Assembly (NCBI RefSeq): GCF_054482525.1
Contig: NZ_CM137006.1
Direction: 5' to 3' (one strand)
Length of the DNA stretch: 64,000 bases
Shown here: piece by piece, positions 33,801 to 36,800 of the stretch
Layout of the letters: every line of letters begins with the position of its first letter
Position numbering within the stretch: position 1 is the first letter of the stretch
Position numbers: made by a program

Positions 33801-36800
33801 GTGCCGGAAGAGCGAAGCTATGCAGCGTGTACTGGCATTTTATCAAGGAAATGTTAGGTATTTTAGACGTTACTAGATTAAAGAGCATTAGTTCAGATGT
33901 GAATTGACATTTTCATGGCGCAGGGTAGAGCCAGCGTGGTTGTCCGCTTTGCGTCAAAACCAGATATTACCAGATTTAGACATATATTCCCGATAGACCT
34001 GCTCTGATGCTACACTCTGTGCTATTTTCATGACCCCAATAAAAATATTTATGACTATTGCTGATTTCAAACGGCCTAAATTGGAGCTCCCAAACGGGGC
34101 AAACAAACTACTACTGCACTCTTGCTGTGCTCCATGTTCCGGTGAAGTGATGGAGGCGCTTCAGGCCTCGGGAATCGACTACACCATCTTTTTCTACAAC
34201 CCGAACATTCATCCTCAGAAAGAGTATTTAATTCGTAAGGATGAAAATATTCGCTTTGCTGAACAACACGGCGTGCCGTTTATCGATGCTGATTACGACA
34301 CCGACAACTGGTTTGAACGTGCCAAAGGAATGGAATGGGAGCCTGAGAGGGGGATCCGTTGTACCATGTGTTTTGACATGCGTTTTGAGCGGACAGCGTT
34401 GTACGCTGCTGAAAATGGTTTCAGTGTGATCAGCAGTTCACTGGGCATTTCACGCTGGAAAAATATGCAGCAGGTTAACGAGTGTGGGCGGCGAGCTGTT
34501 GCGCATTATCCGGGTATGGTGTACTGGGATTATAACTGGCGCAAGCAGGGCGGCTCGTCCCGTATGATTGAAATCAGCAAGCGCGAAAAATTCTATCAGC
34601 AGGAATATTGTGGCTGTGTGTATTCTCTGCGCGATACCAATCTACACCGCAAATCTCAGGGACGCCCTCTTATCAAAATTGGCCAACTCCACTACGGAAA
34701 AGAAGAGAAGGAGTGATTTTATGGATCACCTTTCTGATTGATTTTATATTGGCGAGGTAACGGGAGTTAAGTAGAATGGCTGCGGGTGCTTGAGGCTATC
34801 TGTCTCAGGCATGAACACCAAAGGCAGATAGAGAAAAGCCCCAGTTAACATTACGCGTCCTGCAAGACGCTTAACATTAATCTGAGGCTCAATCTATGAA
34901 CGGCAAATCTAGGTTAGCCTCTTACGTGCCGAAAGGCAAGGAGAAGCAGGCTATGAAGCAGCAAAAGGCGATGTTAATCGCCCTGATCGTCATCTGTTTA
35001 ACCGTCATTGTGACGGCACTGGTAACGAGGAAAGACCTCTGCGAGGTACGAATCCGAACCGGCCAGACGGAGGTCGCTGTCTTCACAGCTTACGAACCTG
35101 AGGAGTAAGAGACCTGGCGGGGGAGAAATCCCTCGCCACCTCTGATGTGTCAGGCATCCTCAACGCACCCGCACTTAACCCGCTTCGGCGTTTTTTCCGT
35201 TGATTAACTCTAGTTATTAGAGAACCGAACTTTTATTGATGGGGCAGGGAGATGAAGAAACTTGTTTTAGTCGCAGGTGTAATGATTGCAACAGTAATGT
35301 TGGGAGGGTGTGCAGCAAAGATCGATCCAGCGTTGAAAGCAGAAGCAATGAAGCCACTAACATGTAATGATGAAAAGCAATGTGACTTTTATTGGAAACG
35401 AGCGCAATTCTGGTTGGCTAATAATTCCTCATGGAAAATTCAAACGGCGACAGACACGCTAATTTCCACTTATAATCCCTCTCCAAATAGTCCATTCCTC
35501 GCTTATCAAGTGAGTAAAATGCCAAATGAAGATGGATCCTCAAGAATTTTCATCAAGCCTTTTTGCGATAATATGTTTGGCTGTCAACCAAACCCCTATC
35601 AGGCAGTTGTTTCCTTTAAAAACTTCGTTAAAACAGGGCAGTAGTGTATAGCTTGGACGATAAATTATTAGTGAAAACGCCGTAAACCCTCACCCAATGT
35701 GGACTAAGTCTATCAAACATGACTGTGATGATTAGTCCGTAGTTGTTGTCTATGAAATCTGGATTGAGTCAGGGTTTAATCCAATAATTATTCTATCGTT
35801 CCTTTACAAGTCCGGTATATTACTTTCAGTTTGTTTTAGCATACCCGCTTCGGCGGGTTTTGTTTTTTCCTGGCATTCTGGTTTACAATTCGCACGCCAG
35901 CCTGAACAACTGGCACCTGCTGCGCCAGCAGAGACAACCGATGGCGCACGATACCAAATTACACAATTCTGATGATTCTGCCGTCTTTGCCAGCAGGCAC
36001 GGGCGGCGTTCCCGCACTTTCAAATCTGACTGGTTCCAGCATGACCCATGTACTGAAGAACAGGCCGAATGGCTAATTCATAACTATCGCAGACGCGGAT
36101 ACGAGATTAAGAAAGCCCTCAGCCTCGATTATCGTCACTGGATAATCTATGTCAGGCTCCCTTATTCCGAACGCCCACCGCGCCCATCCCGCACATACCA
36201 GCAACGGATCTGGAGGTAACGTGCGGATATTACTTCGACCTGTTCTGGTACCGGAACTCGGGCTGGTGGTCCTTAGGCCGGGCCGTGAATCCATGCAAGT
36301 ATTTCATAACCCTCGAGTGCTGGTGGAGCCTGAACCGAAAAGCATGCGCGGTCTGCCGTCCGGAGTCGTCCCTGCCGTTCGCCAGCCGCTGGCGGAGGAT
36401 AAATCATTACTGCCATTTTTCAGCGATGAGCGGGTGATTCGTGCTGCTGGCGGCGCTGGGGCGCTGTCTGACTGGCTGTTGCGTCATGTCAAATCCTGCC
36501 AGTGGCCTCATGGTGACTATCATCACAGTGAAATCGTCATACATCGTTACGGTACCAGCGCGATGGTGTTGTGCTGGCACTGCGACAACCAGTTGCGTGA
36601 CCAGACATCCGAATCACTCGGGCAACTTGCTCATCAAAACCTGTCAGCATGGATGATTGACGTCATACGCCATGCAATGAATGGCACGCAGGAGCGGGAA
36701 TTGTCGCTGGCTGAATTATCTTGGTGGGCGGTCTGCAATCAGGTGGCGGACGCGCTTCCGGAGGCAGTATTACGTCGTTCTCTGGGGGTACGTGCGGAAA

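Follow-up and report, generated by a model that had tools for sequence, protein, structure and literature searches.

A queH gene carried as cargo by lambdoid prophages of Escherichia coli, alongside a nearly universal queG

The last step of queuosine (Q) formation on tRNA, the reduction of epoxyqueuosine (oQ), can be carried out by two enzymes. QueG requires cobalamin (PMC4646009, PMC5175355), and PMC4646009, citing Frey et al. 1988, gives the step as cobalamin-dependent in E. coli and Salmonella. QueH is a non-orthologous substitute for QueG (PMC5372724, PMC6063277). Its family, reaction and structure are already known, and RefSeq already names the gene that concerns us here. This gene was identified in a 64,000-nucleotide stretch of DNA (contig NZ_CM137006.1 of NCBI RefSeq assembly GCF_054482525.1; hereafter the window), where it lies on the + strand inside a lambdoid prophage adjoining tRNA-Ser(cga). 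We found no paper in the literature that describes a prophage-borne queH in E. coli, and a 2019 survey of the viral queuosine pathway reported no homologue of QueA, QueG or QueH in the viruses analysed (PMC6884629).

The longest open reading frame (ORF) at this locus, 34030..34716 on the + strand, encodes 228 amino acids. The first-pass annotation, made from the sequence alone, had assigned it to DUF208/QueH on the basis of an HSCCAPC motif and further cysteines, and this identity was confirmed by searches with hidden Markov models (HMMs). More specifically, the Pfam QueH model PF02677 is matched over positions 1-174 of 175 (E = 1.2e-65) with all conserved cysteine ligands present, and Thermotoga maritima QueH in the Protein Data Bank (PDB; 7lc5) is matched by sequence at E = 7.8e-22 (phmmer). 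The HSCCAPC motif (H30-S-C32-C33-A-P-C36, residues 30-36, codons at 34117..34137), in which H30, C32, C33, P35 and C36 are all present, is what we take to be the N-terminal metal-ligand motif, judging from the titles of PDB entries (C9S and D13N mutants). It is followed on the same strand by a CxxC motif (C111-T-M-C114, residues 111-114, 34360..34371), whose two cysteines are invariant in the family, and by a family-invariant CGC motif (C194-G-C196, residues 194-196, 34609..34617); the cysteine pairs of these two motifs would supply the other metal ligands.

Conservation was assessed in a family sample drawn from 3191 clusters, which HMMER detected at E<=1e-3 among 1.84 billion cluster representatives. 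The window protein, T. maritima QueH and about 100 diverse representatives were compared in alignments of 107 and 79 sequences. C111, C114, C194 and C196 are each invariant in both, C32 and C33 of the HSCCAPC motif are invariant across the family alignment, and the other invariant or nearly invariant residues (H30, N57-P58-N59, E65, R69, E106, R110, Y189, Q191, Y193 and G195) are kept. None of the invariant residues has been lost from the window protein or from the prophage alleles examined. At conserved sites, the sole difference from the crystallised T. maritima enzyme is Cys36 in place of Asp13, the residue that the depositors mutated to asparagine according to the PDB titles. We rejected this replacement as a sign of divergence, CCxPC being a common variant of the family: at this fifth site of the motif, 69 of 150 diverse representatives have CCxPC and 48 have CCxPD, and CCAPC is found in all 120 close relatives.

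The structure predicted by AlphaFold2 from the 79-sequence alignment has a mean predicted local distance difference test (pLDDT) score of 95.4 and a predicted template modelling (pTM) score of 0.91. Its best Foldseek matches are five T. maritima QueH entries (including 7lc5, 7lc7 and 9deu), and superposition on 7lc5 gives a template modelling (TM) score of 0.93, normalised to the target, with a root mean square deviation of 1.2 Å. The next structural family, TtuA, and other PP-loop or alpha-hydrolase-like enzymes are far weaker matches. The window protein has the same fold as T. maritima QueH and all six invariant cysteines, together with the His, Glu, Arg, Gln and Tyr residues. The ORF encodes a full-length, genuine QueH/DUF208 protein, which differs from the known QueH system in being borne by a prophage, not at a core chromosomal locus, and in coexisting with QueG instead of replacing it.

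Translation probably starts not at 34030 but at 34051, yielding a coding sequence of 221 amino acids (34051..34716, + strand), because the upstream ATG is not conserved and because RefSeq (WP_000150294.1) and the chromosomal orthologues begin at the equivalent of 34051. The most divergent allele (L010) has a stop codon immediately 5' of the Met8 equivalent. Annotation of the gene in phage resources is incomplete. The profile of PHROG 3217 covers residues 41-228 only, so that the CCAPC motif is lost, and is labelled "unknown function"; evidently, many phage annotations start queH at the internal Met41.

We then related the distribution of the gene to that of queG. The K-12 queG sequence was found in 5425 of 5426 complete E. 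coli genomes, which bears out the earlier expectation that this host normally relies on QueG, while queH DNA is present in 994 of the 5426, with at least 80% of the gene covered in 984 of the 994. Given the distribution of queG, at least 993 of the 994 carriers have both genes. QueG is thus a core function of the species and queH an accessory one, and the usual phyletic pattern of the family, namely occurrence in genomes without queG (typical, not defining), is not the one seen in E. coli. Because queG is nearly universal, the prophage gene would provide a second oQ reductase and not a replacement. The two enzymes are predicted to catalyse the same reaction in the same cell, from oQ to Q on tRNA-Asp, tRNA-Asn, tRNA-His and tRNA-Tyr, but QueH is related to QueG in neither fold nor family and does not depend on cobalamin. 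E. coli is unable to make cobalamin de novo.

Most copies are practically identical, 706 of the 994 being at least 99% identical, and among the matches listed every one carries the RefSeq name "epoxyqueuosine reductase QueH". Carriers include O104:H4, O157:H7, sequence type (ST) 131 and avian pathogenic E. coli (APEC) O18 strains. A single isolated phage in the GenBank phage collection, HannyBb, has queH (93.6% identity), where it is annotated as hypothetical, and 163 viral contigs in IMG/VR encode it. Other tblastn matches in the phage collection (short "Bacteriophage sp." contigs without annotation, "Acinetobacter phage" records of 0.3 Mb, and Staphylococcus or Listeria fragments) were not accepted as true phage carriage.

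In all eight annotated contexts examined, queH is located directly 3' of a DUF977/Ren-like gene that closes the replication module, in Qin/DLP12-like or Rac-like lambdoid prophages, and with hok/sok downstream in most. In the window this neighbour occupies 33451..33876 on the + strand, directly upstream, and is co-inherited with queH as one conserved block, which a BLAST profile over 86 loci places from ~33400 to ~34900, with similarity falling sharply on both sides. The closest sister prophage, in strain AMSCJX02, uses the same serU attachment site and aligns with 98.7% identity over 96% of the query, which was 22000-46000 of the window. It is without queH, and has four unrelated small genes between DUF977 and hokD. 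Two Rac-like elements by trkG, in whose sampled stretch the lysis genes run straight on to trkG, keep an intact queH. As the gene is absent from the slot in AMSCJX02, lies in a block of limited extent and is intact in Rac-like remnants, queH behaves as a swappable prophage cargo gene, present or absent in a fixed slot of related prophages, and its description as prophage cargo in the first-pass annotation was correct.

This behaviour recalls that of lambdoid morons and auxiliary metabolic genes. Like them, queH is polymorphic for presence in a fixed slot between conserved genes; it also persists in degraded prophages. It may have expression signals of its own, namely a predicted -10-like element just upstream and a predicted hairpin at its stop codon. 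Where lambdoid morons encode virulence or exclusion factors, queH encodes an enzyme of tRNA modification.

The slot itself is occupied by other genes elsewhere. In AMSCJX02 (L002 23933-25246, corresponding to ~33900-34750 of the window) it is filled by a hypothetical gene, a DUF7167 gene and two more hypotheticals, and the position after DUF977 looks like a general cargo insertion point. In the alleles with 94% identity, a truncated DNA methyltransferase remnant was observed between DUF977 and queH (L011 5726-5911, L012 5735-5920 and L009 8762-8968), suggesting that a methyltransferase gene earlier held, or recombined with, the queH slot.

To trace the origin of the gene, we compared it with its closest relatives outside E. 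coli. The nearest proteins, at 80-86% identity, are annotated as QueH and come from Erwinia, Gibbsiella, Photorhabdus, Providencia, Proteus, Ewingella, Rahnella, Sodalis and others. Six orthologues inspected on their contigs are in ordinary chromosomal neighbourhoods, none with phage genes nearby: in Erwinia, queH is between purL and glrK-glrR-glnB-hmp-glyA; in Providencia, beside tmcA and near purC; in Photorhabdus, beside a BenE-family (PF03594) gene. A C-terminal tail ending in YG is common to the prophage protein and the chromosomal orthologues. On the strength of this identity, these core contexts and the shared tail, sequence comparison identifies the prophage gene as a captured Enterobacterales housekeeping queH and not as a phage-specific divergent paralogue. 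By the Nei-Gojobori method, comparing the window copy with the alleles of phage HannyBb and of four E. coli genomes (91-98% nucleotide identity), the ratio of nonsynonymous to synonymous divergence (dN/dS) was 0.02-0.06, with dS up to 0.45. These ratios point to strong purifying selection on queH while it resides in prophages.

One putative expression signal of the gene is not confined to prophages. An extended -10-like promoter element, TGCTACACT, is predicted at 34008..34016 on the + strand, 43 nt upstream of the ATG at 34051. It is present in 86 of 87 prophage loci, and the similarity of the ST70 allele to the window starts exactly at this element. On the Erwinia chromosome this nonamer precedes queH by 40 nt, and each of the remaining chromosomal orthologues is preceded by a TAnnnT hexamer at -37 to -42. 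Because the element is common to the prophage loci and the Erwinia chromosomal copy, we infer that queH was captured along with its native, predicted promoter. At the other end, a hairpin over the stop codon followed by a U-rich stretch (34706..34735, + strand) is a possible weak terminator; the fold of 34700-34800 has z = -1.6, which is not significant, and a terminator scan gave none above chance at queH.

Taken together, these observations lead us to propose, with a probability of roughly 70%, that the prophage carries a functional, cobalamin-independent QueH which came from another member of the Enterobacterales, travels as a prophage moron and acts as a back-up for the conversion of oQ to Q in lysogens. 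The donor would have been the housekeeping queH of that other member, and the gene would now be a small, probably self-promoted moron whose single fixed slot has the DUF977/Ren-like gene on one side and the sok/hok module on the other. Its product is predicted to be an epoxyqueuosine reductase of adenine-nucleotide alpha-hydrolase-like fold that binds a [4Fe-4S] cluster with a further iron beside it. In a lysogen, QueH would reduce oQ to Q at position 34 of host tRNA-Asp, tRNA-Asn, tRNA-His and tRNA-Tyr. It would thereby duplicate the cobalamin-needing QueG, and the likely benefit would be full Q maturation when cobalamin is scarce, so that lysogeny would convert the modification state of the host tRNAs. 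The analysis establishes that the protein belongs to the QueH family, with its ligands and fold, that it is orthologous to chromosomal QueH, and that its gene is under purifying selection, behaves as cargo and coexists with queG. That the enzyme is active in E. coli, that lysogens express it from a promoter of its own and that it is selected for its independence of cobalamin are what we infer.

Several points weigh against this proposal. A two-hexamer consensus promoter scan found nothing above chance and did not report TGCTACACT, so that the promoter is a consensus-level prediction, and no NCBIfam model matches the window protein, which means that this collection contributes no evidence for its name. 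In the searchable literature we found no experiment on this protein, and in the papers found there is no established difference in phenotype between oQ-tRNA and Q-tRNA. Finally, queG is kept in essentially every carrier, and queH would be dispensable when cobalamin is replete, which makes its benefit speculative.

We next consider who else might profit from the gene. QueH could serve the phage, if early rightward transcription after induction raised Q levels and NAU-rich phage mRNAs were thereby better translated in lytic growth. Since queH is flanked by the replication module and the Q antiterminator, is co-oriented with both and has no convincing terminator upstream, read-through from the early promoter is expected; in Shewanella, according to a preprint (10.64898/2026.03.05.709803), Q rises on phage infection, to the advantage of NAT-biased genes. 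Against such a role, prophage ORFs do not differ from flanking host ORFs in the NAU fraction of their His, Asn, Asp and Tyr codons (0.584 against 0.583; Fisher p = 0.97), and a phage codon bias toward NAU was rejected on this result. The host, moreover, already has QueG, and queH has its own conserved, predicted -10-like element and stays intact under strong constraint in the Rac-like remnants by trkG. We regard a benefit to the phage as unlikely. Less probable still, in our estimate, is that queH has no selected function in E. coli and hitch-hikes as a neutral passenger with the DUF977 and hok-sok block. Redundancy with queG and tight linkage to neighbouring phage sequence would fit such a passenger, and the near-identity of most copies (706 of 994 at 99% or above) is compatible with recent spread; but a dN/dS of ~0.05 with dS reaching 0.45, full length in 99% of copies, and functional residues that are all intact in every allele examined speak for maintained function.

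The enzyme might also have been recruited to another substrate, such as a 7-deazaguanine-type DNA modification, another epoxide, or a defence or anti-defence process, along the lines of the nucleic-acid modification or defence role that the first-pass annotation had raised as its alternative. Phages use the preQ0 pathway for DNA modification (PMC6884629), their 7-deazaguanine clusters (DpdA with FolE/QueD/QueE/QueC) draw on the queuosine pathway just as QueH does, and queH sits in a cargo-rich region by the hok/sok toxin-antitoxin module and a Ren-like exclusion gene. In contrast to those clusters, the near-identical sister of the window prophage is annotated, from integrase through gpJ, without DpdA/TGT-like or preQ0-synthesis genes, as are the other queH prophage segments sampled (not every ORF of the window was scanned with HMMs). 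The viruses surveyed in PMC6884629 and lacking QueA, QueG and QueH include ones with 7-deazaguanine DNA-modification genes. A PADLOC search with queH and six neighbouring proteins gave no match at E<=0.01, and a defence role was rejected. With 80-86% identity to housekeeping QueH, and every catalytic residue and the C-terminal tail kept, a change of substrate appears very improbable, and the alternative raised earlier found no support. The back-up of QueG in lysogens thus remains our preferred explanation.

In practical terms, phage annotation has a gap at this gene ("unknown function" in PHROGs, "hypothetical" in HannyBb). Were the enzyme active, the prophage would set whether E. coli tRNAs carry oQ or Q without cobalamin, with a bearing on Q-dependent translation, metal and oxidative-stress phenotypes and gut cobalamin ecology, where QueG is usually assumed to be the sole route. 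It is conceivable, though we hold this only tentatively and with rather less than even confidence, that queH, transcribed from its own promoter, frees about one fifth of E. coli strains from external cobalamin for Q, as a phage-mediated conversion of the tRNA epitranscriptome with fitness effects in cobalamin-poor niches. In that case QueH would also become the first enzyme of tRNA-queuosine maturation demonstrated as phage cargo, the 2019 survey having met no QueA, QueG or QueH homologue in its viruses (PMC6884629).

The same prophage contains four tRNA genes (38523-38832, + strand), a CAU tRNA (Ile2/Met) followed by Lys-UUU, Thr-UGU and Gly-UCC, between the Q antiterminator and the lysis genes. 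The CAU tRNA is called Met by ARAGORN and Ile of the lysidine type by RefSeq in the sister prophage. The first-pass annotation had joined queH and these tRNAs into one translation-manipulating cargo set, a grouping that our results do not sustain. Queuosine occurs only on tRNAs with GUN anticodons, namely Asp, Asn, His and Tyr (PMC5372724), and none of the four prophage tRNAs is a QueH substrate, as none has such an anticodon. Co-occurrence was examined at 60 queH loci for which 5.5 kb or more of sequence is available downstream, where the set of the window (CAU-Lys-Thr-Gly) was found at only 11 loci, CAU-Arg-Arg at 17, no tRNA at 17 and other combinations at the rest; a GUN tRNA was found at none of the 60. 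In addition, the conserved queH block ends at ~34900, far from the tRNA genes. Related prophages were observed to have different arrays at this same place, either CAU-Arg-Arg, Thr-Gly or none.

Further features of the prophage were recorded. Directly downstream of queH, 34784-35108 holds the antisense RNA sok (Rfam RF01794, 110 bits), overlapped by an ORF for a mok/hok-type toxin; the ORF, 34896-35108, matches the PHROG "MokW-like host killing", and sok and mok/hok form the right end of the co-inherited block. Beyond it, a 130-amino-acid ORF (35252-35644, + strand; GC content ~0.39) with a lipoprotein-like N-terminus matches phrog_16082, of unknown function, and occurs at only about 7 of the 86 loci with queH; it seems to be cargo in its own right, rarer than queH. 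In the left arm, the small RNA DicF (Rfam RF00039, 76.7 bits) is found at 29672-29723 on the - strand, in the region that bears the annotations dicB and ydfD in the sister prophage, and this DicF marks the element as a Qin-like lambdoid prophage. The host tRNA-Ser(cga) at 25127-25216 abuts the prophage, and the adjacent integrase ORF (25269-26294, - strand), frameshifted in AMSCJX02, is intact in the window, where the prophage may still be mobile.

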